A stretch of 64,000 bases of DNA from a bacterium (GTDB lineage: Bacteria > UBA8248), in NCBI GenBank assembly GCA_965200245.1, contig CBDATS010000004.1, positions 640,001 to 704,000 on the forward strand, given 5' to 3'. Positions 26,268 through 44,730 of the stretch are shown here, piece by piece (positions within the stretch are counted from its first letter, which is position 1; each line of letters begins with the position of its first letter). A program made the translations under genes and the position numbers. A model generated the notes under the pieces. That model worked only from the letters and a program-made list of their open reading frames with translations. It made no database searches and had not been told where the DNA came from.

Positions 26268-26273
26268 ATTCCT

Positions 26274-26600: not shown

Positions 26601-26603
26601 ACT

Positions 26604-27770
26604 TCAGGCGGTCACTCCCAGAATATGCACGGCACACGTAGCGCCCGAGCCTCCCAGGTTGTGGGCCAGTCCCACCTCGGCGCCCGGAACCTGGCGCGCA
26701 CCCGCCTCTCCACGCAACTGAAGCGTGAGTTCGTGAATCTGCGCCACGCCCGTCGCTCCCACCGGATGACCCTTTGATTTCAGGCCGCCGCTGGTGTTGA
26801 CCGGCATCGCACCACCGAGCTTCGTAATTCCTTCGAAAGCGCCTCGACTCCCCTCGCCCCTGGCGAAAAATCCCAAATCCTCAAGCGCGATAATCTCTGC
26901 GATAGTAAAACAGTCGTGAATCTCGACCAGATCGATGTCCTCACGGTTCAGGTTGGCATGAGAGAAGGCATCCTCCCCCGCCTTTTGCGTCGCATGGAAC
27001 GCCGTGATGTCGCGTTTGTCCGAGATAGCGGGCGAATCCGAAGCCTGCGTCGATGCGAGAACCTTCACCGGTTTTTCATGATGTGCCGCAGCCACTTCCG
27101 TGGGGCACAGCACGACGGCCGCCGCACCGTCGCTGATCAGCGAACAATCGAACAGCCCGAGCGGTTCCGCCACGGATCTGGCGTCGAGCACCTGGGCGAG
27201 CGAGATTTCCCTTTGCATGTGCGCGTTGGGGTTGAGCTTGCCGTGGGCGTGGTTTTTCACCGCCACCCAGGCGATCTGCTCACGCGGCGTTCCATACTCG
27301 TGCATGTGGCGTCTGGTGATGAGACCGAAAAGTGCGGGAAATGTCGAGCCCACGGGTTCTTCCATCGCAACGTCCCCGGCGGCGGCAAGAATGGAGGCCG
27401 TCTCGTCCGTCTGTGTCGACGTCATTTTTTCCACTCCGGCGACGAGTACATAATCCACCTGGCCCGAAGCCACGGCCAGCACCCCCTGGCGCATGGCGAG
27501 TCCGCCAGAAGCGCATGCGCCCTCCAGTCGGGTACAGGGAACCGCGCCCAGCCCCGCCGCGTGCGCCACCATGGGTGCTGCATGGTTCTGGCCGACGAAG
27601 GCCTGTGAGGCAAAATTGCCAAGAAAAAAAGCCTCGACCCGTTCGGGTTCGAGGCTTGCGTCGTCAAGGGCGTTCCTGCCTGCCATCGCGCCCAGCGCAG
27701 TGAGGCTCTCCTCCCTCACGCCAAACGGCGTGACACCTGCCCCAATGATCGATACGCCTCGCATCCTCAT
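26604..27770 (-). CDS. SCP2-type thiolase
   Basis: EGACASG, GVEKM, EIHDCF, VNTSGGL, GHPVGATG. Confidence 0.92.
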   Translation of the reverse strand: MRMRGVSIIGAGVTPFGVREESLTALGAMAGRNALDDASLEPERVEAFFLGNFASQAFVGQNHAAPMVAHAAGLGAVPCTRLEGACASGGLAMRQGVLAVASGQVDYVLVAGVEKMTSTQTDETASILAAAGDVAMEEPVGSTFPALFGLITRRHMHEYGTPREQIAWVAVKNHAHGKLNPNAHMQREISLAQVLDARSVAEPLGLFDCSLISDGAAAVVLCPTEVAAAHHEKPVKVLASTQASDSPAISDKRDITAFHATQKAGEDAFSHANLNREDIDLVEIHDCFTIAEIIALEDLGFFARGEGSRGAFEGITKLGGAMPVNTSGGLKSKGHPVGATGVAQIHELTLQLRGEAGARQVPGAEVGLAHNLGGSGATCAVHILGVTA

Positions 27771-27783
27771 CCCCTCGATGGAT

Positions 27784-29112
27784 TCATACGCGCGTTTCGC
27801 GCAAATCCAGAAATCTTTTCGCCTTGAACGTCGTTCTTTCAAAAGAGCCCGCGGGCAGAACTTCTACCTCGGGCGTCACGAGCAGTTTCACCCCGAGCCT
27901 TTTGCGCAACGCATGGCACATGCCCGGGTTCGCCTCTCCCTCGGCAGCCTCGGCCACGACGACGCAGCGGTCCCGTCCCGTCGACCTGTCCGGGTGCAAT
28001 TCCACGCGAAACTCGTTGCTGAGGCCCGGAAAACTCCGCACGACTTCCTCCACCTGGATGGGATAGAACTTCGCTCCCTTGTAGATGACGAGATCGTCAT
28101 GCCGCCCGAGAATCCCCCCCGGCGAACGCAGGTGCGTTCTGCCGCAAGCACTGGGGGAACTGTCCACGCACGCGAAATCGTTCGTCCAGTAGCGCAGCAT
28201 GGGCGTGGCCTCGCGCGTGAGATGCGTGATGACAAGAATGCCCACCTCGCCCTCGGGCACAGGCTATTTCGTCTCGGGATCCACGATCTCGACGATATGG
28301 TGATCCTCCGCCCAGATGAGTCCCGACTTCGCTGCCGACTCACTCGCGAAAGTCGGTCCGATCTCGCCAAGCCCGTAATAGTCATAGGCATCCAGGCCGA
28401 GAGCGGCTTCGATTCGAGCGCGTGTGGATGGGTTCTGCGTTCCCGCCTCCCCGCCGAAAGAGCCGACTTTCAAAGGGATATCCGCGGGGTCCACGCCGCT
28501 TTCGGTGAGTTTCTCCCCGATGTAGAGGCCGTAGCTCGGCGTACTCAGCAACACCGTGGAACCGACAGTGGTGAGGTAGTGAATCTGCCGTTCCGTCATG
28601 GCGGCGCCAATAGGTATTACGAAACACCCCATCTTCTGCGTGGCGTAGTGCACACTCATTCCGGCAACCCACAGCCCATAGCTGAAAGCGTTCTGGACAA
28701 CGTCGTTCGGTCTCACCCCGAAGCTCCACATCGTGCGCGCCGTGAAATCCGCGATGTTCTCGATGTCGTTCCTGCTCCAGATGGTGCTCACGGGAACCCC
28801 TGTGGTACCCGTGGAAGGGTGGAGTTCTCCCCACGTCTGCGGCGGAGCCACGGTGTATCGTCCGAAGGGAGGATGCTCCCGCTGCTCGTCTCTCAGTTCC
28901 TGTTTGGTAACGAATGGAATTTTCCGCAGATCGTCCAGGGTACGAACGGAATCAGGCCCAATACCCGCCTCATGCAGACGTTCACGGTAGAATCCGGATT
29001 CCAGGTAACAGCGGCGGACCTGCCACTTGAGGCGTTCGAGTTGTAGGGAGGCGAGTTCGTCACGCGCCATGCATTCGATTCGCTCATCCCAAAAATCGCC
29101 GTTTCGCACCAT
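27784..29112 (-). pseudogene. paaK: Phenylacetate-CoA ligase family, interrupted by an in-frame TAG at 28264-28266
   Basis: STGTTG, YGLGE, then DPETK*PVPEGEVG in one frame, then GRHDDL. Confidence 0.82.
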
Positions 29113-29427
29113 GACAGCGAAAACTCCTGTAGAGGAAAAGCGAGCGAATCTGTCGCACACTCCCGAAACCACATTCAGTTCGTAGACGATAATCCCGGAA
29201 AGAAATCCCAAGAAAGATAGTACAACGATTGATGATGCGCAAGTAAGGGGTTTTCCGGGTTCAGTTGATAGGTGTCCAGTGCTGCGTTAAACATCACTTA
29301 CGCTACGACTTGAAGTTATGTCAAGACAGTTGGTGTGACTGACTGTCTTGAAGATCACGCCTGCTCAGTACTGTAATTTGCAAATGTTGCTCATAATCTT
29401 CTTCAAATCCTAGAGTTCTTCATTCCC

Positions 29428-29676
29428 TTGGATCCCAAAGGTATTTTTCTGCGTGTTGGTAAGGCTGTTGATGCTGGTCAAGAAGGAGGCTACCAGTATG
29501 AATCTCCGGGTGCAGACCTCGTCGTTCGCATCGTTGAAAGATACCTCGCAGAACACCGGGAGTTGTTACAACAGGATGAGCAGTGTCGCCAGACACTTAT
29601 AGAGATTCTGGATGTATTTGTGAGCTGGCCCTCCGCCAGGAGACTTGTGTACCGACTGGATGATATCTTTCGGTGA
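29428..29676 (+). pseudogene. C-terminal remnant of a large protein, possibly a STAND/NACHT ATPase
   Basis: YQYESPGADLVVRIVERYLAEHR...LDVFVSWPSARRLVYRLDDIFR resembles C-termini of such proteins (from recall); no N-terminal part. Confidence 0.4.
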
Positions 29677-30008
29677 GCCATATACTGGGCGTGGGCGATT
29701 GTCTCCTGGAAACCGTAGCTATGCACTTGGCAAAGTTTCATTCCAGTAAATTATGAATATTCGTGCTCGCATATATGAAATTGCAGTATATTACTTTGCA
29801 ACTCCTCCTCGGTTCGATCCGTCCTGAGGGGATTTTTCACTTCATCGATCATCAGACGATGATGCAAATAACCTAGCAATAACTCCTCCTCCATGAATAT
29901 AGCGGAAACTACAGGGGAATTACTAAGCTAGTGCAGGCTCATCGAACTTCTGTCATGACCTTATCCAACTTGGCATGGAATAGGGTGAACATTTATTCAT
30001 GACAACTA

Positions 30009-30248
30009 CTATGATCTTACATCCCCGGAGGAGTTGATCCTCGTATATGGCCATTCGGGCCTCGTGCGCCTTTTCTTAATGGAAGAATGGAAGATTCTGG
30101 CCTGGTCTACGATCGCAAGAACCAGATCCGGGTCCATTGGATCAGGGTCGTCTACGGCATATTGATAGTACAGTTCTCTCTTTCTCTCGGTGTCCAGTTT
30201 GCTTATCGAATATTCAAACATTTTCCTGATGTTATACTTTTTAGTCAT
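30009..30248 (-). CDS. Mini-protein family C
   Basis: KLDTERKRELYYQYAVDDPDPMDPDLVLAIVDQARIFH; two paralogs upstream. Confidence 0.65.
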   Translation of the reverse strand: MTKKYNIRKMFEYSISKLDTERKRELYYQYAVDDPDPMDPDLVLAIVDQARIFHSSIKKRRTRPEWPYTRINSSGDVRS

Positions 30249-30312
30249 TTTTAAATACCCCGCAGAACGCAGGAAAGAGACCGTGTAGAACGGCACGGTG
30301 GGCAAAGAGAAT

Positions 30313-30543
30313 TCATCGCCGGTAATCCCGGGGCCAGTCGCGTCCTGTCTTTTCGGCTTCGAGCCTGTCCCTTTCGAGCATCCCAAAGAACGTATCCCCG
30401 AAAGGAGAAAGTCCCCCCTCCGAACAGAATTCGACGTATCTTTTCCGGTATTTCTCGTCACTCCAGCCGGCGAGAATGCGTCTTTGCGAATTGTCGAGTC
30501 TCATTCCCCGATACGATTTTTGCTTCGACTTTTCAAGTGCCAT
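30313..30543 (-). CDS. Small hypothetical protein
   Basis: Co-oriented 76-aa ORF inside the array. Confidence 0.5.
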   Translation of the reverse strand: MALEKSKQKSYRGMRLDNSQRRILAGWSDEKYRKRYVEFCSEGGLSPFGDTFFGMLERDRLEAEKTGRDWPRDYRR

Positions 30544-30669
30544 CTATCTCATCCCTTCGTCTTTGTGCCCTTCCTGCCCGGTTCGGAGGTATGGGGCCTC
30601 GTTTTTTCACGAATGCAGTCAGAATACATATCCTGCCGCCTCTCACGACAAAGAAAAGACGGGCGGCAT

Positions 30670-30862
30670 TCACCCGAAAATACCCGATATCCCTTCTGAG
30701 GACCTAGCATTTCCAGGGTTCTTATGGAATTGTCTCGATTCATCGATAATGGCTCGAACCAGGTCGGCATCTAATCGATCAGAACCGGAGGTGGCCGCAT
30801 CATAGTAGGACTTTCTTATTTTTTCCGTACTCAAACCCCTGATTTCAATGTCGTACCTTATT
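30670..30862 (-). pseudogene. Mini-protein family C, start lost
   Basis: GLSTEKIRKSYYDAATSGSDRLDADLVRAIIDESRQFH; no in-frame start. Confidence 0.55.
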
Positions 30863-31045
30863 TCTTATATCGGCCATTTCGGTTCTTCTCGGCATGGAAG
30901 GGTCCTGATTCGTCTATAATCAATCGAACCAAATCGGCATCTACCGGACCGGGTTCAGAAATGGAGTGGCTATAAAACGATTTTCCTTTCTTTTCGGTGT
31001 CCAGATATTCAATAAAAACCTTGTACTTCTTCTCGAAGGTGGCAT
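30858..31045 (-). pseudogene. Mini-protein family C, frameshifted
   Basis: EYLDTEKKR in one frame, FYSHSISEPGPVDADLVRLIIDESGPFH in another. Confidence 0.55.
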
Positions 31046-31046
31046 T

Positions 31047-31208
31047 TTAGTTTCCATGAATCATCCGGGATCTTTCCACTTCATCCCTTGCAATAACCAT
31101 GAAATCATCGTCCCTGTATTCAGCGACTGCCTTCAAGTACAGTTCCCTGTCCTTTTCAGTTTTCAGGAAATCGGCAGTATCGTATCTATAGGTTTTTGTT
31201 CTGGCCAT
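31047..31208 (-). CDS. Mini-protein family B (HI1420-like antitoxin N-terminal domain, no HTH)
   Basis: MARTKTYRYDTADFLKTEKDRELYLKAVAEYRDDDFMVIARDEVERSR; GGAG RBS; below the ORF-track size cutoff. Confidence 0.7.
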   Translation of the reverse strand: MARTKTYRYDTADFLKTEKDRELYLKAVAEYRDDDFMVIARDEVERSRMIHGN

Positions 31209-31354
31209 TGTTTATCTCTCCAGCTGCATCTTCGGTCCATTCCCATACATTAGCCGCGATCTTTCGATATCTTCCAGTGCTTCATCGACCAGTTTCCGAT
31301 TACCGAACTTTTCAACTGCTTCCAGGTAAAGTCTCCTGTCCTCTTCATCCTCCA
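31097..31354. repeat. 258-bp direct repeat, copy 1
   Basis: Identical by eye to 33677..33934 (offset 2580). Confidence 0.92.
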
Positions 31355-31397
31355 GGATTTCAGCGGGATCGTATGGTCTGACTTTCGTTCTGGCCAT
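31212..31397 (-). CDS. Mini-protein family B (HI1420-like antitoxin N-terminal domain, no HTH)
   Basis: PYDPAEILEDEEDRRLYLEAVEKFGNRKLVDEALEDIERSR; AAGGAG RBS. Confidence 0.75.
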   Translation of the reverse strand: MARTKVRPYDPAEILEDEEDRRLYLEAVEKFGNRKLVDEALEDIERSRLMYGNGPKMQLER

Positions 31398-31426
31398 CGT
31401 CTATGTGCTCCTTTCGTCCAGATCCC

Positions 31427-31609
31427 CTACCATCCCAGTCTATCCCTGATTTCATCCATAATTTCATCCTTGTCCAGTTCCGGGGCCGTCTTATCCAGAA
31501 AATCTTCAAATGACTTGCATCTGTTCATCTTCAGCCCCTCCCACGGATACTTTCCGGTTTCGCGCTTCACTCTTTCATAAAGCAGGGCTCTCTCTTCTCG
31601 TTCGTTCAT
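31427..31609 (-). CDS. Mini-protein family A
   Basis: LLYERVKRETGKYPWEGLKMNRCKSFEDFLDK; paralogs at 33188 and 34012. Confidence 0.75.
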   Translation of the reverse strand: MNEREERALLYERVKRETGKYPWEGLKMNRCKSFEDFLDKTAPELDKDEIMDEIRDRLGW

Positions 31610-31627
31610 GACAATTCCTGTCCGCAT

Positions 31628-31837
31628 TCAATAGCCGAAAAACTCGGGTTCCGGGATGGGATCCCTGAAATGTTCACGCGATTTTCTTACATCTTCCCTA
31701 GCGATTTCCCATGCTCTTTTACTGCTATCCAGAAATTCCTCAAGGAACTGTCTTCTCGTGCGCTCATCATCGAGATGCTCATGCACGATGAATTCCTTGC
31801 CGCGCAGAACCCGGTTTCTTCTTTCTTGATGGTTCAC
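31628..31837 (-). CDS. Divergent family-B-like mini-protein
   Basis: EFIVHEHLDDERTRRQFLEEF...AREDVRKSR aligns with family B. Confidence 0.55.
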   Translation of the reverse strand: MNHQERRNRVLRGKEFIVHEHLDDERTRRQFLEEFLDSSKRAWEIAREDVRKSREHFRDPIPEPEFFGY

Positions 31838-32040
31838 AGATAATCCCCACGCATTTCATGGTAAAGGGATGGTGCAGGTGGAATTATTTCAAGGCCTCCG
31901 CGACTTTTCCTGAATTTCAGTTCGGCGTTCAAAATGCGTTCAAACTCTTTCTGCTCAGTCTCCAGGGATTTTCCACATGCGGCTATGTCATGTTCCAGGC
32001 ACTGCGCAATCCCGCTATCTCTGAAAAACAGAATCGTCAT
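31834..32040 (-). CDS. HicB-like antitoxin domain
   Basis: AQCLEHDIAACGKSLE...IPPAP pattern; overlaps both neighbours by 4 bp. Confidence 0.6.
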   Translation of the reverse strand: MTILFFRDSGIAQCLEHDIAACGKSLETEQKEFERILNAELKFRKSRGGLEIIPPAPSLYHEMRGDYL

Positions 32041-32666
32041 ACCCCTATTGCAATCTTCGGTTCTATGGGAATTATATTGTAATCCCTCGATTCAAAGGGG
32101 TTCTCGTGATTCGGTTTCCTGGGCCTCCGCATCGGCTTGGGCCGTCCGTTCTTGTAGTACTCTTTCCGGAAGGCGTCGAAATGGCCCGGTTCGTGGGCAT
32201 CCTCCACTTCCTTCATCCGCATGTTGAGTTCCATCGTCCAGGCCATGACATGGTTGGGCACCTGTTCGCCGGGTTCCAGGAAGTGGTTGTATGGGTCATC
32301 CGGATTATAGGACTTGACTTCATATATCCCCCAGGCAGTTCCGCCCCAATCCGCTTTCCTGTATACGTCGAGTGCCTCGATCTGGCGTTGCATCCGCAGG
32401 GTGCTGGCCATCTCCGGAACTATACGAACCATGCCCCTGTAGTTCATTCCGCCCTCGTGCCTGTGGTAAATCACCAAGAGGCCCTTCATGAGGAAGTCGC
32501 GCGATTCCAGATCTTCCTCGCCTTCATAGATGTATGTGTCTTCTATGGATTCTTCCATGAGGAATCGAAGCTTGAATTCCCCTCTTTTCCACTTTTCAAA
32601 TTTTTCGGCTTCCGGCCACGATTCGGGTACATAGAACGCTTGGTCATCGTATATGTGGATCTTCAC
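32037..32666 (-). CDS. Hypothetical protein (209 aa)
   Basis: AGGAG RBS, translationally coupled to the HicB-like gene; no motif recognised. Confidence 0.7.
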   Translation of the reverse strand: MKIHIYDDQAFYVPESWPEAEKFEKWKRGEFKLRFLMEESIEDTYIYEGEEDLESRDFLMKGLLVIYHRHEGGMNYRGMVRIVPEMASTLRMQRQIEALDVYRKADWGGTAWGIYEVKSYNPDDPYNHFLEPGEQVPNHVMAWTMELNMRMKEVEDAHEPGHFDAFRKEYYKNGRPKPMRRPRKPNHENPFESRDYNIIPIEPKIAIGV

Positions 32667-32714
32667 GGCAGTCTGCTCCTTTTCTCGAGTTCGCGGAGTC
32701 TATCGTCCGCGATA

Positions 32715-33194
32715 TCACCTCGATGATTCCTGCCATGTGATGAAGTCGGCGTAAACTCCCACTGCTTCATTCTGGTTTTTCTTCCACGCCTTTCCTTTTT
32801 TCTTCTTTGTCCGGTTTCTTCGCGTGGTCGTTTTTCCCTGTTGCGCCTTCGCAAAGAGGGTAGCATGGTCCGACAGACGATGAAGGAACAATGTATTTCC
32901 TTCGATTTCATACATAAGAAGAAGATTATCGCCCGGAACCGGAACATGGGCGTCGTAGAGGCCCCTCTGGTTTCCGCGTGTTATTGTGTGGTTCTTGTAG
33001 ATGGAATCCGTGAGCGGCTTTCCGGTAAACACTATAATGTCAATCATTGTCGAAACTTCTTCTTCTACATCGTCATTAACCTTTTTCAGATCTTCCTCGA
33101 ATTCATCCGAATAGATGCGAGTCAGTTTTTCATTCGGAGGGACTTTTTCCTTCCCTTCCTGGCCCCTTCCCCTTTCAAACAGATATTCTAACAT
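32715..33194 (-). CDS. YafQ/RelE-family mRNA interferase
   Basis: YSDEFEEDLKK, YKNH, YDAHV, GDNLLLMY, LHRLSDHATLF. Confidence 0.8.
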   Translation of the reverse strand: MLEYLFERGRGQEGKEKVPPNEKLTRIYSDEFEEDLKKVNDDVEEEVSTMIDIIVFTGKPLTDSIYKNHTITRGNQRGLYDAHVPVPGDNLLLMYEIEGNTLFLHRLSDHATLFAKAQQGKTTTRRNRTKKKKGKAWKKNQNEAVGVYADFITWQESSR

Positions 33195-33370
33195 CCCAAT
33201 CTATCCAGAGCTTTTCTCAGAATCTTGTCCTTGTCCAGATCCGGGAACACTTTATCCATAAAATCATCCCGCGACTTGGCCCTGTTCATCTTCAGCCCCT
33301 CCCACGGATACTTTCCAGTTTCACGCTTTATTCTTTCGTAAAGCAGGTCCCGTTCTTCCCTTTCGTTCAT
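33188..33370 (-). CDS. Mini-protein family A, overlapping the YafQ-like start (candidate antitoxin)
   Basis: YPWEGLKMNRAKSRDDFMDK; AAGGA RBS; 7-bp overlap. Confidence 0.75.
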   Translation of the reverse strand: MNEREERDLLYERIKRETGKYPWEGLKMNRAKSRDDFMDKVFPDLDKDKILRKALDRLGC

Positions 33371-33448
33371 GGCTGTTTCCTTTTCTCTATTTAGGCCACC
33401 AGATCCCGGTAGGTAATCCTTCCTTCCCGCCTTATCTTGGATTTAAGG

Positions 33449-33625
33449 TCATTTTCTGAATTCACTGTAATCAGTGTGATGTGCCTTTTCCATTTCATCC
33501 CATGGCAGGGGGTTTGAATACTTCAGATTCTTCCATGGATGATCGTGGATTTTCGCTCTTCCGACTTTCTTATAGAGGAGTAGCGATGTCCTCGGATCCT
33601 TGCGTTCAAGGTTCTTTCTGTTCAT
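33449..33625 (-). CDS. Divergent family-A-like mini-protein
   Basis: LLLYKKV...HPWKNLKYSNPLPWDEM. Confidence 0.55.
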   Translation of the reverse strand: MNRKNLERKDPRTSLLLYKKVGRAKIHDHPWKNLKYSNPLPWDEMEKAHHTDYSEFRK

Positions 33626-33788
33626 GGTGTCCGCCATCTATTATTCGCGATCTTTCCACCGCGTCCCTTGCTTCGGCCATGAAATCATCGTCCCTGTATT
33701 CAGCGACTGCCTTCAAGTACAGTTCCCTGTCCTTTTCAGTTTTCAGGAAATCGGCAGTATCGTATCTATAGGTTTTTGTTCTGGCCAT
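33606..33788 (-). CDS. Mini-protein family B
   Basis: Paralog of 31047..31208. Confidence 0.72.
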   Translation of the reverse strand: MARTKTYRYDTADFLKTEKDRELYLKAVAEYRDDDFMAEARDAVERSRIIDGGHHEQKEP

Positions 33789-33934
33789 TGTTTATCTCTC
33801 CAGCTGCATCTTCGGTCCATTCCCATACATTAGCCGCGATCTTTCGATATCTTCCAGTGCTTCATCGACCAGTTTCCGATTACCGAACTTTTCAACTGCT
33901 TCCAGGTAAAGTCTCCTGTCCTCTTCATCCTCCA
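33677..33934. repeat. 258-bp direct repeat, copy 2
   Basis: Identical by eye to 31097..31354. Confidence 0.92.
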
Positions 33935-33977
33935 AAAATTCGGCAGAATCGTATGGTTTGACTTTTACTTCAGGCAT
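33792..33977 (-). CDS. Mini-protein family B
   Basis: Paralog of 31212..31397. Confidence 0.75.
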   Translation of the reverse strand: MPEVKVKPYDSAEFLEDEEDRRLYLEAVEKFGNRKLVDEALEDIERSRLMYGNGPKMQLER

Positions 33978-34011
33978 TTCTGGCCCCTTCCCCTTTCAAT
34001 CAGATACCATG

Positions 34012-34200
34012 TCATCGGAGTCTATCCCATATTTCATCTATAATTTCGTCTACATCCAAACGGGGATGTCTTTTCTTTGCTTTATCCAGATATTCTTCAA
34101 ACGACATGGCCCTGCCGAACTTCTGGCCCTCCCACGGATACTTTCCGGTTTCGCGCTTCACCCTTTCATGGATCAGGTCTCTTTTTTCTCGTTCATGCAT
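34012..34200 (-). CDS. Mini-protein family A
   Basis: HERVKRETGKYPWEGQKFGRAMSFEEYLDK. Confidence 0.72.
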   Translation of the reverse strand: MHEREKRDLIHERVKRETGKYPWEGQKFGRAMSFEEYLDKAKKRHPRLDVDEIIDEIWDRLR

Positions 34201-34744
34201 GATAGTAATCGCCTTGTATCTTGTGGATTTCGGTGGGACTTTCCTCGCGCATTGATTTCGCCCGGGTGTTTACCGGAAGGGCCATGCAGGCATCGCTGTC
34301 TTGAGAAGAAACCCGATCAATGTCCGCCCTCCGACCATAGTCCCTCAAGTACCTTCGCATCATTCCTTCCAGATCCCGCAGCCGCTGCGCTGTCCGGTCG
34401 TATAATGCGTTCCCTGCCGTCAGGCTCTTCTCCCGCAGGGTCTGCCGGAAACCGCGCCACTGGCGGGCGGACATCTCTTCGGGGTCTGCGTGCTCTACGG
34501 TCATGCGGGGTTGCCGGCCCTTGCTGCACAGGAGATTGCGGATATCCTTCGTCAGGTTTTTTTCTATCCCGAGTTCCGTGCGATTCTTTCTCTCGTCCAG
34601 CCACTCGACCAGTTCGGATGCTTCCCCGTCATCGTGATGAAAGTGATTCGCGGCGTTTGCGAGGGAGAACAGAATCAGGTGTCTTTCATAATCGGTCAGC
34701 ACGACTCCCTCCTGATGAAACCCCGAAAAGTCGGGGCGATACAC
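34193..34744 (-). CDS. Hypothetical protein
   Basis: 183-aa ORF overlapping the first array gene; start uncertain. Confidence 0.5.
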   Translation of the reverse strand: MYRPDFSGFHQEGVVLTDYERHLILFSLANAANHFHHDDGEASELVEWLDERKNRTELGIEKNLTKDIRNLLCSKGRQPRMTVEHADPEEMSARQWRGFRQTLREKSLTAGNALYDRTAQRLRDLEGMMRRYLRDYGRRADIDRVSSQDSDACMALPVNTRAKSMREESPTEIHKIQGDYYHA

Positions 34745-35184
34745 GTTGCGTTGCAGGGAACCTACGGCACCCGTGCGTCAGATTCGGACGTATGGGCCAA
34801 GAAAATCACAAAAAAATCATCCTGATGTTTCTGACAGGATGGATTTGAAGGAGGTCACGGGATCGCCCGATTGGATTGTTCAGGAAAAATCCCGTGTCTT
34901 GAGGGATACGGTTGACCATGCAGACCGGGGTTCGCCTGCTCTTCACAAGACGCAAGAGACCATCGACAGGGGACGTTTCGGTTGGTCCGCAGTCCGAATC
35001 AGCGAATATATGGCAGTGCATCACCAGCGGGCCATGCGAGGCCGAGTGCAGGGTGGCCGGGTTGCATGGTCGCCTGAGGCATTGAATCGCAGGGACTCCG
35101 GGTGCGCCGGGGGGCCATGGATGAATTGCTGGATGTTGACCAGGAATGGATGGGTGACCACCGCGGGCAGGAGCAGAACCCCTA

Positions 35185-35389
35185 TTACTCGTATTCGTTG
35201 TTCTTCTCTCCCTGGGTGATCCGGTGCCTGATGTATACGTGCTCGTTGCCGTCGCAGTGATTGTTCATGGAACAGATACAACGCTTCATCGACGACCTGT
35301 TCGTCGGCTACATCGATGGGGATAACCGGTTTCCCGAGCCTTCTCAGGCAATGATCCCTGAATTCTTCCCTCGTGGCTGGTATAGCCAT
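35185..35389 (-). pseudogene. T4-like phage neck protein gp13 N-terminal remnant
   Basis: AGGAGA RBS; MAIPATREEFRDHCLRRLGKPVIPIDVADEQV-VDEALYLF, frameshift, then HCDGNEHVYIRHRITQGEKNNEY*. Confidence 0.78.
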
Positions 35390-35414
35390 CCCGATCTCCT
35401 GAACAAGAGGAACG

Positions 35415-35732
35415 ATGTTATTATTCAGGAAGAAAAACATGGACATCAGGGACAGGGCCGACAGCATCACGGAGATGTCGATAGATATCGGCGAGACCTG
35501 TCGACTTCCTCCCGGAACCGACGCCGGCCAGATCGTCGGGATTGCCTCGAACATCGCCACGAAGTGCGCAGGGGACATGATACAGTTCCTGGGCACCGAC
35601 GCGAGAGAGACGGCCAGGACGATTCGCGAGGAGAACGACAGGATGGCCAGACTCAACGCAGGCATCGATCCCGGGTTCGCGGTACGGATAGACGAACTGC
35701 ACGACGGGATCGAGTATTTCCTCGAGGAGTAG
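35415..35732 (+). CDS. Hypothetical protein
   Basis: ORF followed by a CCCCTCTAGGGG hairpin. Confidence 0.5.
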   Translation: MLLFRKKNMDIRDRADSITEMSIDIGETCRLPPGTDAGQIVGIASNIATKCAGDMIQFLGTDARETARTIREENDRMARLNAGIDPGFAVRIDELHDGIEYFLEE

Positions 35733-36062
35733 CCCCTCTAGGGGGTTTCGCGAAATGCATCTTATGTGCCGGGAATTAAAGCATGGCAAGTTACAAGGCA
35801 GACATGATCAGTCAACCTGACCACGGGCCGATGCATTTTCAGGGAATAGGTTTCCGGCCAGATATCATTCCCTTGAAATGGGCATTATCTTCTTGAATCT
35901 GCGATAAAATTTCATGTGCTTTCCTGAACTCTGAATTCATTTCCTTTCTGATGTTCCTGAGTTGTGAATTTATGTCTTAAATATTTTTGTCAACACGATG
36001 AATCTCTGCGTTACTGGCTGACGCAGCAAGATCGGTAACGAGGGCATGCACGAGACTGCAAA

Positions 36063-36692
36063 ATGAAACGACTATTCCCTGACCTTAATCAACTATCTGC
36101 TGAGTGGATAATGAAGTGGGCATTATCCCTCGTGAGCGTAGCAGTAATTGTCTGGGTTATGTTCCCGACCTGGTTGACTGCTGGAGAGTCAGCCAGCACT
36201 ACCCTTCGCAATATCAGCCTCCTCCTCGCGGCCGCCATCGGTCTCCCGCTCGCAATTTGGCGTAGCGCTATTGCTCAGAGGCAAGCCGAAGCGGCACACA
36301 AGCAGTTTGACGTGGCCGCGCAGAATCTATCGAACGAACAATTCAAGAATGGGGTAGAGTTTTTGGCGCATAAATCCATGCCGATCCGTTTAGGTGGTGT
36401 TTTGCTTTTGGGAGATACGGCGGAACGAGAACCTGAACTCTACCATATTCGCGTTATGCAAATATTTGTTGCGTTCTTGTCGTATCCGCCTCGATATACA
36501 ACAACCGAAGGAAAGGTCACGGATCAAATTGATTTTAAGAGTGCGGATACGCTCCAAATAATCAAGGCGATTAACGAAAGAACGGAACAGCAAAAGAAAA
36601 TTGAAACACAAGAGAATTTTGATCTCGAACAAAAACTGGAAGGAGTTCCCGATGTTGATGCGAGACTCAGTGTCCGCGATGGGCATCAATGA
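36063..36692 (+). CDS. Membrane-anchored hypothetical protein, probably 3'-truncated
   Basis: Two TM segments, GLPLAIWRS, IRLGG; last ~50 nt derive from the adjacent IrrE fragment. Confidence 0.6.
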   Translation: MKRLFPDLNQLSAEWIMKWALSLVSVAVIVWVMFPTWLTAGESASTTLRNISLLLAAAIGLPLAIWRSAIAQRQAEAAHKQFDVAAQNLSNEQFKNGVEFLAHKSMPIRLGGVLLLGDTAEREPELYHIRVMQIFVAFLSYPPRYTTTEGKVTDQIDFKSADTLQIIKAINERTEQQKKIETQENFDLEQKLEGVPDVDARLSVRDGHQ

Positions 36693-36879
36693 GATAGAAA
36701 TGGAAGCCAATCTATTCGCCGCGGAATTGCTGATGCCCGCTGTACTTATCAATCAGGAACTTGAGAGCAACGTCTTTGATATCGATGAAGAGGCAGCCAT
36801 CGACGCGTTGGCAAGGCGCTTCAAGGTGAGCCAGTCAGCCATGCCTTTCCGGCTTGGAAACCTCTTGACCTGGAATTGA
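36643..36879 (+). pseudogene. ImmA/IrrE metallopeptidase C-terminal fragment
   Basis: EMEANLFAAELLMP...LARRFKVSQSAM; HExxH part missing. Confidence 0.78.
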
Positions 36880-36893
36880 TCCGAGTACCAGTT

Positions 36894-38300
36894 ATGGGGT
36901 TTGTCTTTTACGATACAGAGACGACCGGAACGAATACGTCTTTCGATCAAATTCTTCAGTTCGCTGCCATCAAGACCGATTATGAACTTAATGAACTGGA
37001 ACGATTCGAGATTCGTTGCCGTCTATTGCCCGATGTTGTCCCCTCGCCTGGCGCAATTCTGATTACAGGAGTTGGTCCTTCCCGATTCACGGACTCTGGG
37101 TTGCCTGGTCATTACGAGATGGTCCGCGCCATCAAGGCCAAGCTTGACGAATGGACACCCGCAGTCTTTCTTGGCCACAATTCACTGTCATTTGATGAAC
37201 ACTTGCTGCGGCAGGCGTTCTACAAGACGCTTCATGCACCGTATCTGACCAATACCAACAGCAATTGTCGGACTGACAGCCTGCGCATTGTCCAGTGCAT
37301 GGCTTTATACGCGCCGGGGATAGTGAACGTACCTATTGACGATAATTGGCAGTCGACCTATAAGCTCGATCGGTTGGCTCGTGCCAATGGCTTCAATCAC
37401 AGCACTGCGCATGATGCGATGGGTGATGCCGAGAAAACGGTTCATCTTTGCCGGTTGCTGGCCGAGCGCGCTGACGGTTACTGGTCGGGCTTTGTCCGGT
37501 TCGCTCAAAAATCGGCAGTTCTGGACTTCGTGCAGGAGGAGGAGTTCTTTTGCCTCACAGACGCCTATTTCGGGAAAACCTATACCTGGATGGTTTGCCA
37601 AATCGGTGAAAATCCAGACTATGCAGCCGAGCAACTGGTTTTTAACCTCGCCATCGATCCAGAAGAGTTGACTTCTCTTGATGACGATGCCCTGGCTGTC
37701 CGTCTTATGGAGCGACCCAAACCGGTGCGAGCTCTTCGCGCCAATGCTTCCCCGGCGTTACTGGCCTACGAAGATATCCCGTCACATCTACGCGCAGCCA
37801 CTCCCGGGGAAAATGTGCTCAGAGGACGTGCGTCCCTGATCAGGGGCGACGGGCACTTTGCACGACGATTGGTGAATTCTTTCCTGTCGACTCGCCAGGA
37901 ACGTACGCCATCCGTTTACGTCGAAAAGCAGATCTACGATTCATTTGCCAGCTGTGCAGATCAGGAGCTTATGGAACGTTTTCACACGATGGACTGGAAG
38001 GATCGGCCCAGGCTGCTTGAATCTCTTTCGGATCCACGAGCAAGAATTCTCGGAGAGAGACTGCTTCACATTGAAGCTCCCGCGGTTCTTTCTGGCGATG
38101 TGCGCAAGAACCTTGACATCGCTGCTGCGAGGCGCCTTATGGGAACAGACGGTTCAGCGCCATGGCTTACCTTGCCGGGAGCCCTCCTGGACACACGCGA
38201 TTGGCTTGTGGGTGCTTCTGGCGCCGCCGCTGTATTGCTTCGTGAACTAGAGGCTTATCTTGTCGAACGGTCCAATGAGGCCAGAACATTGATTGCCTAA
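36894..38300 (+). CDS. Exonuclease I (SbcB)-like DEDDh exonuclease
   Basis: FYDTETTG, QFAAI, GHNSLSFD, AHDAMGD, EKQIYDSF. Confidence 0.88.
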   Translation: MGFVFYDTETTGTNTSFDQILQFAAIKTDYELNELERFEIRCRLLPDVVPSPGAILITGVGPSRFTDSGLPGHYEMVRAIKAKLDEWTPAVFLGHNSLSFDEHLLRQAFYKTLHAPYLTNTNSNCRTDSLRIVQCMALYAPGIVNVPIDDNWQSTYKLDRLARANGFNHSTAHDAMGDAEKTVHLCRLLAERADGYWSGFVRFAQKSAVLDFVQEEEFFCLTDAYFGKTYTWMVCQIGENPDYAAEQLVFNLAIDPEELTSLDDDALAVRLMERPKPVRALRANASPALLAYEDIPSHLRAATPGENVLRGRASLIRGDGHFARRLVNSFLSTRQERTPSVYVEKQIYDSFASCADQELMERFHTMDWKDRPRLLESLSDPRARILGERLLHIEAPAVLSGDVRKNLDIAAARRLMGTDGSAPWLTLPGALLDTRDWLVGASGAAAVLLRELEAYLVERSNEARTLIA

Positions 38301-38419
38301 CAGGACGCACTTATTCAGAAGCACGATTCTTTCTCGTTCCTCGGTCAATTTCCAGTCAAGAACAAGCATTTGGCGAACCGAAATATCATGGTGACCGACT
38401 AGCCATTGATGGAACGCAT

Positions 38420-39103
38420 GTGCAGGCTACTGCCAATACGCAAATTGCCCGGACAAAAAGACTTGAAAACCATACGGCCTTGCCTTATATTCGTTCCCTG
38501 AAAGGGATGAATATGCCTGTCACAGCCGATTTGACGATTCGGGAAACCGCTGCCCTCGCGGGAGTATCCCGGACAACGATCGAAAAAGCCCTGGAAGCCC
38601 GTATCCTGAAGGTTCTCACCGGACCGGCCCGTCTTCGTGGTGGCGCGATGCGCTATCTCCCGGTCCGGGCCGTGGTCTATTTCCATGCCCTGAAGGCAGC
38701 CAACCTTACGGACCTTCCTTTACGTCACAAACGGGCAATCTGGACCGATATGGTCCGGCTTGAGCCCATGCAGCTTGATACAATCGAATTCACTCCCGGC
38801 ACCATGCTCGATCTCGAGCGTCTCGCGGCGGATTCCCTGCGGAATGCCGAGCGATACCGGATAGCCCGTGATCGATACATCACATCAGACGGGGACATCC
38901 TCGGCGGCACACCGGTCATCGCCGGAACCCGGTTGACCGTTTACGCGATTCTCGGGCGGCTGCAGGATGGAGACAGTATCGATGATCTTCTGGAAGACTA
39001 CCGCGAGATTCCGCGCGAAGCGTTCGGGGCCGCCGAGATCTACGCCAAATCCCATCCTCTCAGGGGACGCCCGTCCGGCAGACCCTGGCGAAACACAGCC
39101 TGA
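38420..39103 (+). CDS. DUF433-domain antitoxin with N-terminal HTH
   Basis: ETAALAGVS; ILGGTPVIAGTRLTV...DLLEDY; true start may be downstream. Confidence 0.82.
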   Translation: MQATANTQIARTKRLENHTALPYIRSLKGMNMPVTADLTIRETAALAGVSRTTIEKALEARILKVLTGPARLRGGAMRYLPVRAVVYFHALKAANLTDLPLRHKRAIWTDMVRLEPMQLDTIEFTPGTMLDLERLAADSLRNAERYRIARDRYITSDGDILGGTPVIAGTRLTVYAILGRLQDGDSIDDLLEDYREIPREAFGAAEIYAKSHPLRGRPSGRPWRNTA

Positions 39104-39120
39104 TTGACGGTTGCGGCAAG

Positions 39121-39446
39121 ATGATGCGGTTGTTTCTTGATGAGTGTCTGTCCTCAAAACTGCCCGGTCTCTAAACGCCGAGGGGATTCATGTTGCCCTG
39201 CATCCACGCGATTTCGGTGGGCTGGGTGCACCGGATCACCACGTATTGGCCAGATGCGTCGAGCAGGATATTGTACTCGTGACGGTCAATGCGCTCGATT
39301 TCCGAGCCCTCGTCGCCGCATGGGACGTGCATCCCGGCCTCGTCATCCTCCCGAGCGTGAGCCGGGAACGTTCGGAGTCACTGCTACGTGATGCGATCAC
39401 TTTCCTTTCAGGACACGGCGCCCCGATGGCTCTTTCGAGCGGATAG
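39121..39446 (+). pseudogene. DUF5615 PIN-like toxin, frameshifted
   Basis: MRLFLDECLS, shift at ~39160, then GLGAPDHHVL...LVTVNALDF...HPGLVIL. Confidence 0.8.
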
Positions 39447-39626
39447 CTAGAATTTATCAAAAATGATTTTGAGTGCTCCAATTGCCAAAGTGAAACTTCG
39501 AGAAGCAACGCGCCGCTCAAGTCTGGGAGCTCATTCTCGATCAGATCGTCACCTGTGAAGGCCCAAGGGACATTTCAGCGCTGGAAGAAATCAGGTATCG
39601 CGTTAACAGAGCTAGCCTGCCATAGA

Positions 39627-39756
39627 ATGACCATTATATCAGCCATTAATAGTTTTGATGACTATTATTCTATCCTTTTTTCTTGACAGTCCTGAATTTA
39701 TTTGCCAGAAATGACTATATTATCAGGCTCTATATAGCCTAATGACCATTATTCCA
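39627..39756 (+). promoter_or_regulatory. hipBA-type promoter with four repeated operator-like motifs
   Basis: ATGAC(C/T)AT... at 39627, 39658, 39711, 39742; TTGACA at 39683. Confidence 0.55.
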
Positions 39757-39780
39757 GTCTCTTCGTGTCAGGTGTGAAAA

Positions 39781-40113
39781 ATGGCAAAGCAACGAACCTA
39801 CTCCAAATACGCCCGGGAAGCCACTGTGCTTATGGGGGAACAGATCAAACTCGGACGCAAACAACGCCAGTGGTCAGAAAAAAATCTGGCGGAGCGGGCC
39901 GGTATCTCCAGAGCCACGCTGCAAAAAATTGAGAAAGGAGAAATGGGCTGCTCCGTTGGCCTGGTCTTTGAGGTCGCAACGCTTGTTGGTATCAAGCTGT
40001 TTGAATCCGACAATATGCGGCTCTCCAAACATATCGAGCACACGAGAGACAAAATTGCGCTGCTGCCGCAACGTATGAAAGTAACCGAAAAGACGGTACG
40101 GGATGATTTCTAA
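39781..40113 (+). CDS. XRE-family HTH antitoxin (HipB-like)
   Basis: LAERAGISRATLQKIEKG; overlaps the hipA start. Confidence 0.88.
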   Translation: MAKQRTYSKYAREATVLMGEQIKLGRKQRQWSEKNLAERAGISRATLQKIEKGEMGCSVGLVFEVATLVGIKLFESDNMRLSKHIEHTRDKIALLPQRMKVTEKTVRDDF

Positions 40114-41362
40114 CAGCGACAGGGAAGCCTTCGTCTGGATTTGGCTGCCGGACGAAACCACGCCAGTGGTCGCCGGACGGCTGGAAGCGGACAACGGTAA
40201 TGTTCTGTTCAACTACGGCAAGAGCTACCTGGAGCGCATTAACGATCATCCCCCTGCGATTCCGATTTACGAACCTGAGGTGCCGTTGCAGGCCGGAGTT
40301 TTACCGCTGCCGGAAGGATTAACCATGCCCGGCAGTATTCGGGACGCTGCCCCCGATGCGTGGGGTCGGCGTGTGATTATCAACAAGATGCTGGGACTCA
40401 AAGGTGCTGACACGGATACAGCCGAGCTGGGCGAACTGACCTGCTTGCTGGAGTCCGGTTCCGACCGGATTGGTGCACTCGATTTTCAGCGTTCACCGAC
40501 CGAGTATGTGCCGCGTGCCGCCAGCAACGTCAGCATGGAAGAACTGATTGAATCCGCTGAACGTGTCGAGAAAGGCGTCCTGCTCACGCCTGAACTGGAT
40601 CAGGCTTTGTTCCACGGCAGTTCCATCGGCGGTGCGCGTCCAAAAGCCTTGATCCAGGATCAGGGCAAAAAATACGTTGCCAAGTTTTCATCCAGCACCG
40701 ACCTCTACAACGTGATCAAAGCTGAATTCATCGCCATGCGGCTGGCACATCTTGCCGGACTGAATGCAGCGTCAGTAAAACTGGTCAAGGCCGCTAACAA
40801 AGATGTACTGCTGATCGAACGCTTTGACCGCCAGCCAAAAGACGGGAGTTGGTCACGCCGGGCCATGGTCTCGGCACTGACATTGCTCGGGCTGGATGAG
40901 ATGATGGCGCGTTACGCCAGCTATGAAACGCTTGCAGAAACCATTCGCCACCGTTTCACAGATCCGAAGGATACGTTGAAAGAACTGTTTTCACGGCTGG
41001 CCTTCAACATTCTGTGCGGCAATACCGATGACCATGCCCGTAACCATGCCGCCTTCTGGAACGGCAAGGAACCGACTTTGACACCAGCCTACGATATCTG
41101 CCCACAGGGGCGCACAGACAACGAGGCGTCTCAGGCGATGCTGATATCAGGCAACAACAATATGAGCCAACTCAAATCCTGCCTCGAAGCGGCGAACCAT
41201 TTCCTGCTTTCGGAAGACGATGCCCGCGCTATCTTCGGCCACTTGACCGAATCCATCGAAAAGCAATGGGACTCAGTATGCGAGGAAGCCGAATTGAGCG
41301 AAGTGGACAGGAAATTTTTCTGGGGAAGGCAGTTTCTAAACCCTTATTCGACCGAGCAATAG
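40103..41362 (+). CDS. hipA: HipA-family kinase toxin
   Basis: PDAWG, SSIGGARPK, ERFDR, NTDDHARNH, PAYDI. Confidence 0.92.
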   Translation: MISNSDREAFVWIWLPDETTPVVAGRLEADNGNVLFNYGKSYLERINDHPPAIPIYEPEVPLQAGVLPLPEGLTMPGSIRDAAPDAWGRRVIINKMLGLKGADTDTAELGELTCLLESGSDRIGALDFQRSPTEYVPRAASNVSMEELIESAERVEKGVLLTPELDQALFHGSSIGGARPKALIQDQGKKYVAKFSSSTDLYNVIKAEFIAMRLAHLAGLNAASVKLVKAANKDVLLIERFDRQPKDGSWSRRAMVSALTLLGLDEMMARYASYETLAETIRHRFTDPKDTLKELFSRLAFNILCGNTDDHARNHAAFWNGKEPTLTPAYDICPQGRTDNEASQAMLISGNNNMSQLKSCLEAANHFLLSEDDARAIFGHLTESIEKQWDSVCEEAELSEVDRKFFWGRQFLNPYSTEQ

Positions 41363-41458
41363 GTACCTGCTTTGAAAGGGCCCATTGATCCAAACGACAT
41401 TAAGGAAATTTCCGGGAAAAACCGTGACTCGGCCCTGAAGGTCGTAAAAATCCCAAAA

Positions 41459-43336
41459 TCAAAGGGTTATGGTGGTTCCCGCCGCCAGGGGGTCGTCGAG
41501 CGCGACGAGTAGAGCCTCCATCACGCGGGCCGGGTCGACGCGCCCCTCGAGAATCAGCATGAAACCGTCCATCAATTCGCGCCTCATCCAACCCGCGAAC
41601 ACCGCCGCCTCCTCGAATGCTGCCCTGTCCGTCTGCAGACCCCCGGAGCTTCCATCCAGAAATATCTCCCCGATTTTTTCCTCCAGGGTGCGAACGGGCG
41701 GACCCTTCTTCTCGAAGGACATTTCATAGGCGAGGAGTCCATCCTGAATGAAACAACAGTACCTCTCATCTCGCGTCTGGCCGGGTTCGACAATGATGAG
41801 CCTCCTCTTCTCGACGGAAGGCCCCGAGAGGGCGTATATCCTCGCCAGATGATGGACACGGGCGATATAGCGTCTGAGTTTCCCGGGCGAGGGTCCCTCC
41901 TCTCCCCAGGCTTTCTGCAGAAGAGAGAATACGCCCTTGTCCTCCTTTGGGAGACGCCCATCGAGGATACCTTCAAGCGTCTCAAAGAGTTTCGCGCATT
42001 CTGAGTCCGGCAGCCGGGGCGGGTTCTTCCCACGCGAGAGAGCACCGGGCTTTCCGGAATCGCACGGTGTTTCCGGCACCTTGCGGGGCAGCGGAAAGGC
42101 GGCGGAGATGGCACTCAGCAAATCGGTGAGTTGTGTTTTTTTCCGAAACGGACCGTAGTAGCAGGCACCGTCCTGCGCCAGACAGGAGACGCCGGAGACT
42201 CCGGGCCGGGCGCCGTTTGCCGAGAGCCTCAGGAAACCCCCGCCCGATACGGAGAGGTTCCCGTTTACCAGACTCGCTTTTTGCATCGCCCGGAACGCCT
42301 CTACGTTCATGACCAGTTCGCTTCGCAGGCTCTTCGCCTCTACCTGGCGGACACCCTTCAGTCTCTGGGCGAACCGGCTGGCGGACCGGTTCCTGGGATA
42401 GAACAGGTCCCGCACCGCCCGCTGTATGTCATTGGCCTTTCCTGCGAAGACGAGTTTTTCCTCCCTGTCATAGAGGCGGTACACGCCGCGACCGCGTGGC
42501 AGGGACTCGATCTGCGCCGGGTCGAACTGAATCCCTTCCGCCATCGGCGGGGAAACTTTCTCCTCAGATTGCTGAAACGCGAGCAGGGATTCGAGGCTAT
42601 CCAGTCCCAACAGCCGACACATTTGCATGAAGCGGATGAATAACTGTGCCGTCGTCTCGGCGTCGCCCAAAGCGCGGTGTCTCCCTTCCCCGGATTCGGG
42701 AAGACCGAGTGTAGCGCTCAGTTCGCCGAGATTGAAGCGTTTTTGGTTTGGCAGAAGCAGGTTTGCCAATTCGAACGTGCAGAGAACCGTAGGAGAAAAG
42801 TCGCGATTCAGGAATTCCCGGGCGTAATACTGAAGAAAATGGAGGTCGAAATTCGCGCAATGGGCGACGAACACGCAGCCTTCGATGAAGTCCAGAAATC
42901 CGGGCAGCACCTCCGTCAACCCTGGTTTGTCCGCCACCATGGCTTCGGTAATACCCGTCAGGCGAACGACGTTCCAGGGGATATCCCGGCCCGGGTTGAC
43001 CAGGGCGTCCCATGAATCCACCACCTCGCCCGCACGAATCCTGACGGCAGCCAACTCCGTGATCCGGTGCTGGGGAGGACGCCCGCCCGTGGTCTCGATG
43101 TCGACCACAGCGAATGTGGTTTGCGGAAAGTGGGGGCGGGAAAGCAAACGAGCGGCCTCGTCCACGCTCATGAGGCCACTCCTGCCGTTTCCGGAACTTC
43201 TCTCCAGAAGAGGCCCCAGGATAGCGAACGCCGCCAGATCGCCTATCTCTTCGAGGTTCAATGAGTTGAGAATGTATTGAAACGTGTCTGATTCCTGAAT
43301 CGCCAACTGTTCGTTTCGTGTCGTTTCCTGATCCAT
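41459..43336 (-). CDS. DnaQ-like exonuclease fused to a UvrC-like GIY-YIG region
   Basis: VDIETTG, AHCANFD, HRALGDA; LPRGRGVY...FAGKA; YYGPF. Confidence 0.82.
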   Translation of the reverse strand: MDQETTRNEQLAIQESDTFQYILNSLNLEEIGDLAAFAILGPLLERSSGNGRSGLMSVDEAARLLSRPHFPQTTFAVVDIETTGGRPPQHRITELAAVRIRAGEVVDSWDALVNPGRDIPWNVVRLTGITEAMVADKPGLTEVLPGFLDFIEGCVFVAHCANFDLHFLQYYAREFLNRDFSPTVLCTFELANLLLPNQKRFNLGELSATLGLPESGEGRHRALGDAETTAQLFIRFMQMCRLLGLDSLESLLAFQQSEEKVSPPMAEGIQFDPAQIESLPRGRGVYRLYDREEKLVFAGKANDIQRAVRDLFYPRNRSASRFAQRLKGVRQVEAKSLRSELVMNVEAFRAMQKASLVNGNLSVSGGGFLRLSANGARPGVSGVSCLAQDGACYYGPFRKKTQLTDLLSAISAAFPLPRKVPETPCDSGKPGALSRGKNPPRLPDSECAKLFETLEGILDGRLPKEDKGVFSLLQKAWGEEGPSPGKLRRYIARVHHLARIYALSGPSVEKRRLIIVEPGQTRDERYCCFIQDGLLAYEMSFEKKGPPVRTLEEKIGEIFLDGSSGGLQTDRAAFEEAAVFAGWMRRELMDGFMLILEGRVDPARVMEALLVALDDPLAAGTTITL

Positions 43337-43484
43337 GAACCTGCGCTTTTGTGAAGACATGGGGCGTAGTTCGCTGCACAAGCTCTTAATGTAGCAGAAA
43401 GCGACTCATGCTCATAGCCCTGTACCCTTAGGCTCGTTCACCAGTCGCTCTTGTTTTGGTATAAACCAGAGATATGATCTTTTC

Positions 43485-44665: not shown

Positions 44666-44730
44666 ACTTCATGGTCGACCCTTTGCCCCTTATGTGAACC
44701 CGGTCCCCGGAAGCGAAAGAGGAGGCACTC

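Follow-up and report, generated by a model that had tools for sequence, protein, structure and literature searches.

How does a piece of a gene from an obligately lytic phage come to lie in a bacterial chromosome? The question is raised by a 205-bp fragment with the beginning of a gp13 neck gene, located at positions 35389 to 35185 on the minus strand of a 64,000-nucleotide stretch of DNA (called the window throughout) and sitting within the chromosome of a sponge-associated bacterium. The gene is of T4 type, and the T4-type source family is obligately lytic. In what follows, we analyse the fragment itself, its surroundings and the rest of the genome. We will argue that this stub, together with a second one found on another contig, is most probably a functionless relic of lytic-phage DNA that was captured by illegitimate recombination, and not what is left of a decayed prophage.

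The genome, called G000 here, consists of 15 contigs with a total of 3.68 Mb, and its completeness and contamination are estimated to 95.8% and 8.1%, respectively. The coordinates of the features discussed are collected in Table 1.

Table 1. Features of the gp13 locus, its island and the second relic; positions are those of the window unless a contig (C5, C8) or locus (L064) is named.
Feature	Position	Strand	Remarks
gp13 (Ad2 neck/head-tail adaptor) pseudogene fragment	35185..35389	-	equivalent of codons 1-69, then TAA
GGAG Shine-Dalgarno	35396..35399	-	6 nt before ATG 35389-35387; direct sequence reading
Frame A, gp13 codons 1-43	35261..35389	-	lacks 3 codons that 36 relatives have
Frame B (+1), gp13 codons about 47-69 (HCDG..HRITQ..)	35191..35259	-	48% identity to phiN3 gp13
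Low-GC species-specific island containing the gp13 stub	29255..41454	.	12.2 kb
752-bp segment	34360..35111	.	100% identical to G000:C5:396866-397617; window copy truncated at 34360
Small-gene 3'-end remnant ending ..DELLDVAEEWMDRE	35113..35153	+	last ~13 codons; stop codon lost
M78/CapP-like peptidase C-terminal half, truncated	36601-36879	+	profile positions 71-122 of 123; capP 97-150 of 242
SbcB-like exonuclease	36876-38300	+	PADLOC model RTasSbcB (DRT-associated), E 1e-107; abuts M78 peptidase half
gp15 (Tc2, tail sheath stabiliser) internal fragment	G000:C8:about 268300-268589 (ORF match 268262-268589)		aa ~113-209 of about 280
Species-specific insertion, 1.47 kb	G000:C8:268250-269720 (L064 about 8253-9719)		GC about 47-52%

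The original prediction, made from the letters of the window, described a ribosome-binding site, a small deletion, a frameshift, homology that continues in a second frame and an early stop, and all of these are present on the minus strand. The translation of frame A (35389-35261) is MAIPATREEFRDHCLRRLGKPVIPIDVADEQVVDEALYLFHEQ, and this frame stays open for 122 codons from the ATG at 35389-35387. In an alignment with 36 relatives, P4, R16, L18, G19 and P21 are invariant, and the three residues after ..DEQV are absent from the window row only. Four bases past the frame A part, the gp13 homology resumes in the +1 frame, with frame B reading ..HCDGNEHVYIRHRITQGEKNNEYE, and the stub is ended by a double stop, TAA TAG, at 35187-35182 (TAG at 35184-35182). 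The GC content of the stub is 51.7%, to be compared with 56.9% for the whole genome. When the region 35150-36060 was compared with phages by blastn, no match was obtained, and the neighbouring 105-residue ORF (35415-35732) gave neither a phage match by tblastn nor a usable match in the ESM Atlas. From its sequence, the phage-derived patch at this site therefore seems to be limited to about 235 bp.

We now consider the identity of the stub. Comparison of the 247-residue neck protein of Sinorhizobium phage phiN3 with the whole window by tblastn gives matches in two frames, with 60% identity for residues 1-45 and 48% for residues 47-69 and a joint E-value of 1.1e-13, while no homology is found past residue 69. 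The corresponding searches of the window with gp14, gp15 and the tail-fibre-assembly protein returned noise only. The 43-residue peptide of frame A matches 1960 of 50,697 phage records by tblastn; the best matches are T4-like cyanophages (54% identity, E 2e-9) and the Sinorhizobium phages phiN3, phiM12, phiM7 and phiM19 (60% identity, E 7e-9). The best 30 of the 1960 are all T4-like phages or marine single-cell virus records, and those of the 30 that are annotated are mostly called neck protein, gp13 or head-tail adaptor Ad2, the other annotations being 'head completion protein' and 'hypothetical protein'. In a phmmer search of 1.84 billion cluster representatives, 233 proteins were found at E ≤ 1e-3, with a best E-value of 1.5e-7 and a best identity of 72%. 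Nearly all of the best 150 of these matches begin within the first few residues of the target, and the full-length relatives have about 245-340 residues.

The assignment to the N-terminus of T4-like gp13, which had been made in the original prediction, is borne out also at the level of profiles. A family profile that includes the window row aligns residues 6-66 of the solved T4 gp13 (9mkb, 9lu4) with an E-value of 1.4e-11, and a comparison with PHROGs, which had been proposed as a check, gives a match to phrog_211 (Ad2) at E 0.0023. Pfam returned nothing relevant for the two stub frames. A word-index protein search with the 43 residues gave 13 candidates, none of which was scored, a limitation of the word index given that phmmer found relatives, and none of 574 stretches that share exact 8-mers of the window peptide with genome contigs was confirmed. 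With E-values ranging from 1e-13 to 1e-7, chance similarity is excluded, and we take the stub, on the evidence of these comparisons, to be what genuinely remains, in decayed form, of the 5' end of a gp13 (Ad2) neck gene of T4 type.

It is important to note that the stub has a significant match to the gp13/Ad2 family and yet lacks the full-length ORF of about 245-345 residues with the portal-docking C-terminal arm. Because the homology ends at residue 69, and because of the frameshift and the double stop, it is a pseudogene fragment and not a member protein. The N-terminal ~66 residues align with T4 gp13 (phrog_211), including the ..HxDG.. motif, and the start and the ribosome-binding site are of the same type as there. 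The stub, on the other hand, keeps only 69 of about 250-310 codons, carries the deletion, the frameshift and the stop, has no adjoining gp14 or gp15, and cannot form the dodecameric adaptor. As described in the available part of Lopes et al. (2014, PMC4362835), Ad2, Hc2 and Tc2 (gp13, gp14 and gp15) define the Type-2 neck, are adjacent in that order, and occur only in T4-like Myoviridae. Such a module is not present in the window, which is without gp14 and gp15; a gp15 fragment lies on another contig, and no gp14 was found anywhere in the genome by ORF and HMM searches.

The fragment is part of the chromosome, and not of a viral contig. The window carries glmS, a pcrA/uvrD-type helicase gene, serA and hisZ, and to the right of the gp13 piece the sequence is contiguous with host genes that are syntenic with relatives. 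The region 35112-36400 is wholly covered by Logan contigs from sponge-metagenome runs of two studies, one of which is possibly the source of the assembly. The gp13 piece is found on a 17,585-bp contig of run X4 (depth 16, neighbouring unitigs 14-15) and on a 10,629-bp contig of run X1 (depth 8.9, neighbouring unitigs 7.7-10.7), both of which, when aligned to 34250-36450, extend from 35082 past 36450. As the contigs from the two studies cover 35082-36450 without an indel and with at most one substitution (36418), the frameshift and the stop are not assembly errors. Raw reads from a third study (X8) span 34842-35877 at 1-3x. To the left, the 752-bp segment forms a unitig of double depth from which two paths lead on at either end, in agreement with its exact duplicate on C5, and short reads therefore do not establish the left flank of the gp13 side. 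The fixation in a bacterial chromosome that had been proposed is thus supported, at host depth and in two studies.

Next, the surroundings of the stub are considered. The GC content is 45-55% across about 29000-42000 and about 60% in the flanks, and in 22 of 22 other genus members a gap of 39-204 bp separates the flanks 26001-29254 and 41455-44800. The segment between them is thus a species-specific island, of deviant composition and absent at the syntenic site. Its genes include an array of mini-genes, a YafQ-like gene, several truncated genes, an SbcB-like exonuclease, a DUF433/DUF5615 pair and HipB/HipA; the island is a hypervariable patchwork rich in defence and toxin-antitoxin (TA) genes, in which the gp13 stub is one scrap among several. 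The C5 copy of the 752-bp segment constitutes the 5' part and the upstream region of a gene running into an IetA-like AAA ATPase gene, at a locus that also adjoins NERD and UvrD-like helicase genes. The family of the small-gene remnant has five other copies in the genome with 84-89% identity (C4:637082, C4:737197, C5:8992, C4:373632 and C2:16398), and where the gp13 piece joins its surroundings, the breakpoints lie within remnants of other genes. PADLOC was applied to the proteins neighbouring the stub, and no reverse transcriptase was seen near the SbcB-like exonuclease. The latter is 90% identical to a gene elsewhere in the relative G008, where the exonuclease and the DUF433/DUF5615 pair also co-occur, at 88-90% identity. 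We also observed an inverted repeat of roughly 770-850 bp and 95% identity (G000:C4:636705-637551 and 736750-737617), which brackets about 100 kb including the island.

The site does not have the character of a prophage or a defective prophage. No integrase domain was found in 20 proteins scanned against Pfam, 18 of which lie in the island or at its edges; there is no tRNA in the window and no inverted repeat in 28500-36500, and, among 2318 six-frame ORFs, the island holds no viral match below E 0.004 except gp13. The stub shares with cryptic prophage remnants a phage origin, pseudogenisation, restriction to a strain or species and a position in a flexible island. It differs from them in having no integrase, no att site and no adjoining phage genes, and in its size of ~0.2 kb compared to several kb.

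The T4-like phage had also been suggested as the likely donor of the adjacent mini-genes, and here the analysis leads to a different picture. The array, at 30000-34200 on the minus strand, is made up of small paralogous genes in tandem, among them a 300-nt pair at 31054 and 33634 with 96% identity and a ~60-residue ..KRETGKYPWEG.. family that is present three times. Its proteins match only phrog_4268 in PHROGs, an antidote/repressor-like family, and in Pfam there is a weak match to the dnstrm_HI1420 antidote (PF21716), some members resembling the N-terminus of an addiction-module antidote. Members have paralogues on C4 and C5 of the same genome, and the 752-bp duplicate of a host locus separates the array from the gp13 piece. 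Judged from these sequences, a T4-like origin of the array is not supported. A reading of the array as integron cassettes was dropped, since there are no inverted repeats and the copies are tandem gene paralogues.

A search of the rest of the genome for other T4-like fragments, which had been proposed as a further check, revealed one more, a broken gp15 on contig C8. We compared 1398 six-frame ORFs from 53 T4-like loci (51 IMG/VR contigs, phiN3 and S-B43) with the genome, and only two places matched at E ≤ 1e-4, namely the gp13 stub and the C8 gp15 fragment. A further 920 ORFs, taken from the initial 100 kb of the phiN3 genome, added cellular homologues only (RecA-like, clamp-loader-like, a phosphatase and an HNH protein), and 47 HMMs built from the neck region and from phiN3 ORF clusters found the same two places, and no others, at E ≤ 0.01 in the six-frame genome. 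Beyond these stubs, no T4-like genes were thus found by the ORF and HMM searches. Within the class, phrog_211 matches G000 only, out of 51 genomes.

The gp15 fragment is broken by an in-frame stop and a frameshift. It matches 385 phage records, the best 12 of which are T4-like cyanophages, marine virus records, Stenotrophomonas DLP6 and a Methylophilales phage. It lies, at a locus unrelated to the gp13 site, on the left edge of an insertion of 1.47 kb that is matched in none of 22 other genus members; in 20 of them, no more than 300 bp separate the flanks. Inspection by eye places the end of the host intergenic spacer at about L064 8300, and a GAAA of 4-5 nt is the most that the junctions share. 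An intact gene of ~311-331 residues (ATG at about L064 8599, extending to 9534) makes up the remainder of the insert. Its closest match in a T4-like pelagiphage, with 36% identity and E 4e-36, is Mosig_00189 of Pelagibacter phage Mosig, which has genes for methyl-, glycosyl- and sulfotransferases around it. Within the class of 51 genomes, the intact gene occurs in G000 alone; its 42 other relatives are at most 40% identical, have ~184-245 residues and come almost only from metagenome sources. No Pfam or PHROG match was obtained for it, and its 331-residue protein gave no match to viral contigs. The GC content of the gp15 stub is 51.8%, to be compared with 51.7% for the gp13 stub, and the two stubs rank the same viral contigs highest, with a Spearman coefficient of 0.65 over 48 loci that are not independent of each other. 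The gp15 relic probably came from the same donor as the gp13 stub or from a similar one.

To place the stub in a wider context, 185,579 species genomes were scanned with a degenerate pattern, and 28 gp13 loci were confirmed. A single pattern of this kind would miss decayed copies, including the present stub, so the scan is not a measure of how rare such stubs are. All 28 are intact ORFs of 241-344 residues, 24 of them with gp14/gp15 homologues in the fetched flank, and they lie on contigs of 2-189 kb in MAGs and SAGs filed as bacterial or archaeal; two of the contigs (in the set L075-L102) are about 142 kb long. These appear, from their gene content, to be phage contigs binned together with cells, and not chromosomal relics. 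They have in common with the stub that gp13 sequences are filed under bacterial genome records, and they differ from it in carrying the intact gp13 of phage genomes. A search of the literature turned up no report of pieces of T4-like genes that had become fixed in a bacterial chromosome, which is not proof of absence. The available part of a preprint (10.1101/2024.12.31.630880) concerns virulent phages persisting in isolates and not integrated fragments.

Gene exchange between marine T4-like phages and flexible host islands is known from the literature on cyanophages and Prochlorococcus. The present genome resembles these cases in that the C8 insert retains an intact pelagiphage-like accessory gene. 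It differs from them in that the markers are stubs of structural genes (Ad2, Tc2) and in that the host is a sponge-associated bacterium without a known T4-like phage.

On the basis of these results, the following course of events can be proposed. Some 235 bp from a lytic myophage of the T4 superfamily, with a Type-2 neck (Ad2-Hc2-Tc2), would have been joined into the island, carrying gp13 from its ribosome-binding site through to about codon 69. The DNA may have entered as a small piece, or as a piece of a few kb that was trimmed later, by illegitimate recombination of the end-joining type rather than by prophage integration. The 3-codon deletion, the +1 frameshift and the stop would reflect later decay, which could also predate the arrival of the sequence in this host. 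The capture possibly followed an infection that the cell survived, given the wealth of TA and defence-type genes in the island. The gp15 relic and the intact pelagiphage-like gene would derive from the same or a similar donor. The closest gp13 sequences are, over about 40 residues, only 65% (IMG/VR) to 72% (phmmer) identical to the stub, and the donor would for this reason be an uncharacterised member of the T4 superfamily. That both relics stem from one 2-3-kb module of a phage genome of ~150-200 kb hints at more than random capture, under which this would be unexpected, and suggests either that a single donor piece broke up afterwards or that this region is captured preferentially.

We also considered other explanations for the stub. 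That it is an artefact, i.e. a patch of viral reads that was misassembled or misbinned, or a chance similarity, might be suspected, as the genome is fragmented and has some estimated contamination, as a 752-bp exact repeat ends only 74 bp away, and as T4-like contigs often occur in MAG bins. However, the identical sequence is found at host-level depth on contigs of 10-17 kb from two studies and in raw reads of a third, the piece is short and broken with a right flank that is syntenic with relatives, and the E-values are far from those of chance. Misassembly and chance are thus effectively excluded. A second scenario is that the stubs are the last remnants of a whole or very large T4-like genome that was once integrated and has been almost wholly deleted. 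The origin of the two relics from one neck module would agree with this, and so would the island being a graveyard of truncated genes. Nevertheless, it is very unlikely, since only two T4-like pieces of ~200-300 bp each are found in 3.68 Mb, on different contigs, and the one on C8 lies in a clean insertion between genes that are adjacent in relatives. In addition, no integrase, att-like repeats or tRNA were found, no relative of the class has an Ad2 match, and, to our knowledge, T4-like phages are not known to integrate. The evidence fits the capture of small pieces of phage DNA, and not the decay of an integrated T4-like genome.

Another option is that the DNA did not come from a lytic T4-like phage. 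Its source would then be some other Type-2-neck element, for example a satellite, a tailocin-like element or a temperate relative, and integration would be unsurprising. Satellites sometimes carry neck and tail-completion modules, which is the module that both relics come from, and the low identity to the closest relatives leaves room for such a donor lineage. This is very unlikely, as every annotated match among those listed is a T4-superfamily phage, the 28 gp13 loci from assemblies are all full-length and mostly accompanied by gp14/gp15 in the manner typical of T4-like contigs, and no such element is present in the 51 genomes of the class. The stub could, finally, be expressed and useful, either as an N-terminal gp13 decoy that poisons neck assembly in a dominant-negative manner or as an RNA acting against T4-like phages. 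Since the start codon and the ribosome-binding site are intact and frame A is open, a chimeric peptide with the N-terminal motif that contacts gp14 could be made. In T4 gp13, I24 and I25 of this motif touch helix alpha1 of gp14, according to the available text of PMC12929587; the motif is conserved and present in the stub, which moreover is located in an island rich in defence and TA genes. However, neutral decay is what the frameshift after codon 43, the deletion in a conserved helix region and the premature stop look like. A scan of 34900-36100 revealed no sigma-70-like promoter, a homologous short gene is present in 0 of 50 other genomes of the class, and none of the 28 gp13 matches in other assemblies is a short form. 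A decoy function of the peptide is possible yet unsupported, and we regard a useful stub as highly improbable. From the breaks alone, we infer that the gp13 stub would have no function today.

A bolder version of the capture of phage pieces is that the two relics and the Mosig-like gene are the footprint of an uncharacterised T4-superfamily phage with about 50% GC that infects this sponge-associated lineage, and that their origin from one module is non-random. Either DNA near a preferred genome end, by the terminase genes, would be captured when a defence-rich host survives, or the stubs would be kept for an interference of their products or RNAs with the assembly of the neck. We consider this reading unlikely; if it were true, such 'fossils' of lytic phages could serve as a record of which phages and hosts belong together in uncultured symbionts.

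The gp13 relic shows physically that an obligately lytic phage of T4 type has left DNA in the chromosome of an uncultured, sponge-associated bacterium, where it has stayed, and it points to a phage-host link of a kind that is rarely established by culture-free surveys. The view that T4-like phages do not lysogenise is unchanged by it. What the relic adds is that flexible islands gather even sub-gene scraps of lytic phage DNA, and, when the intact pelagiphage-like gene of C8 is considered as well, it is an example of lytic phages acting as gene donors.
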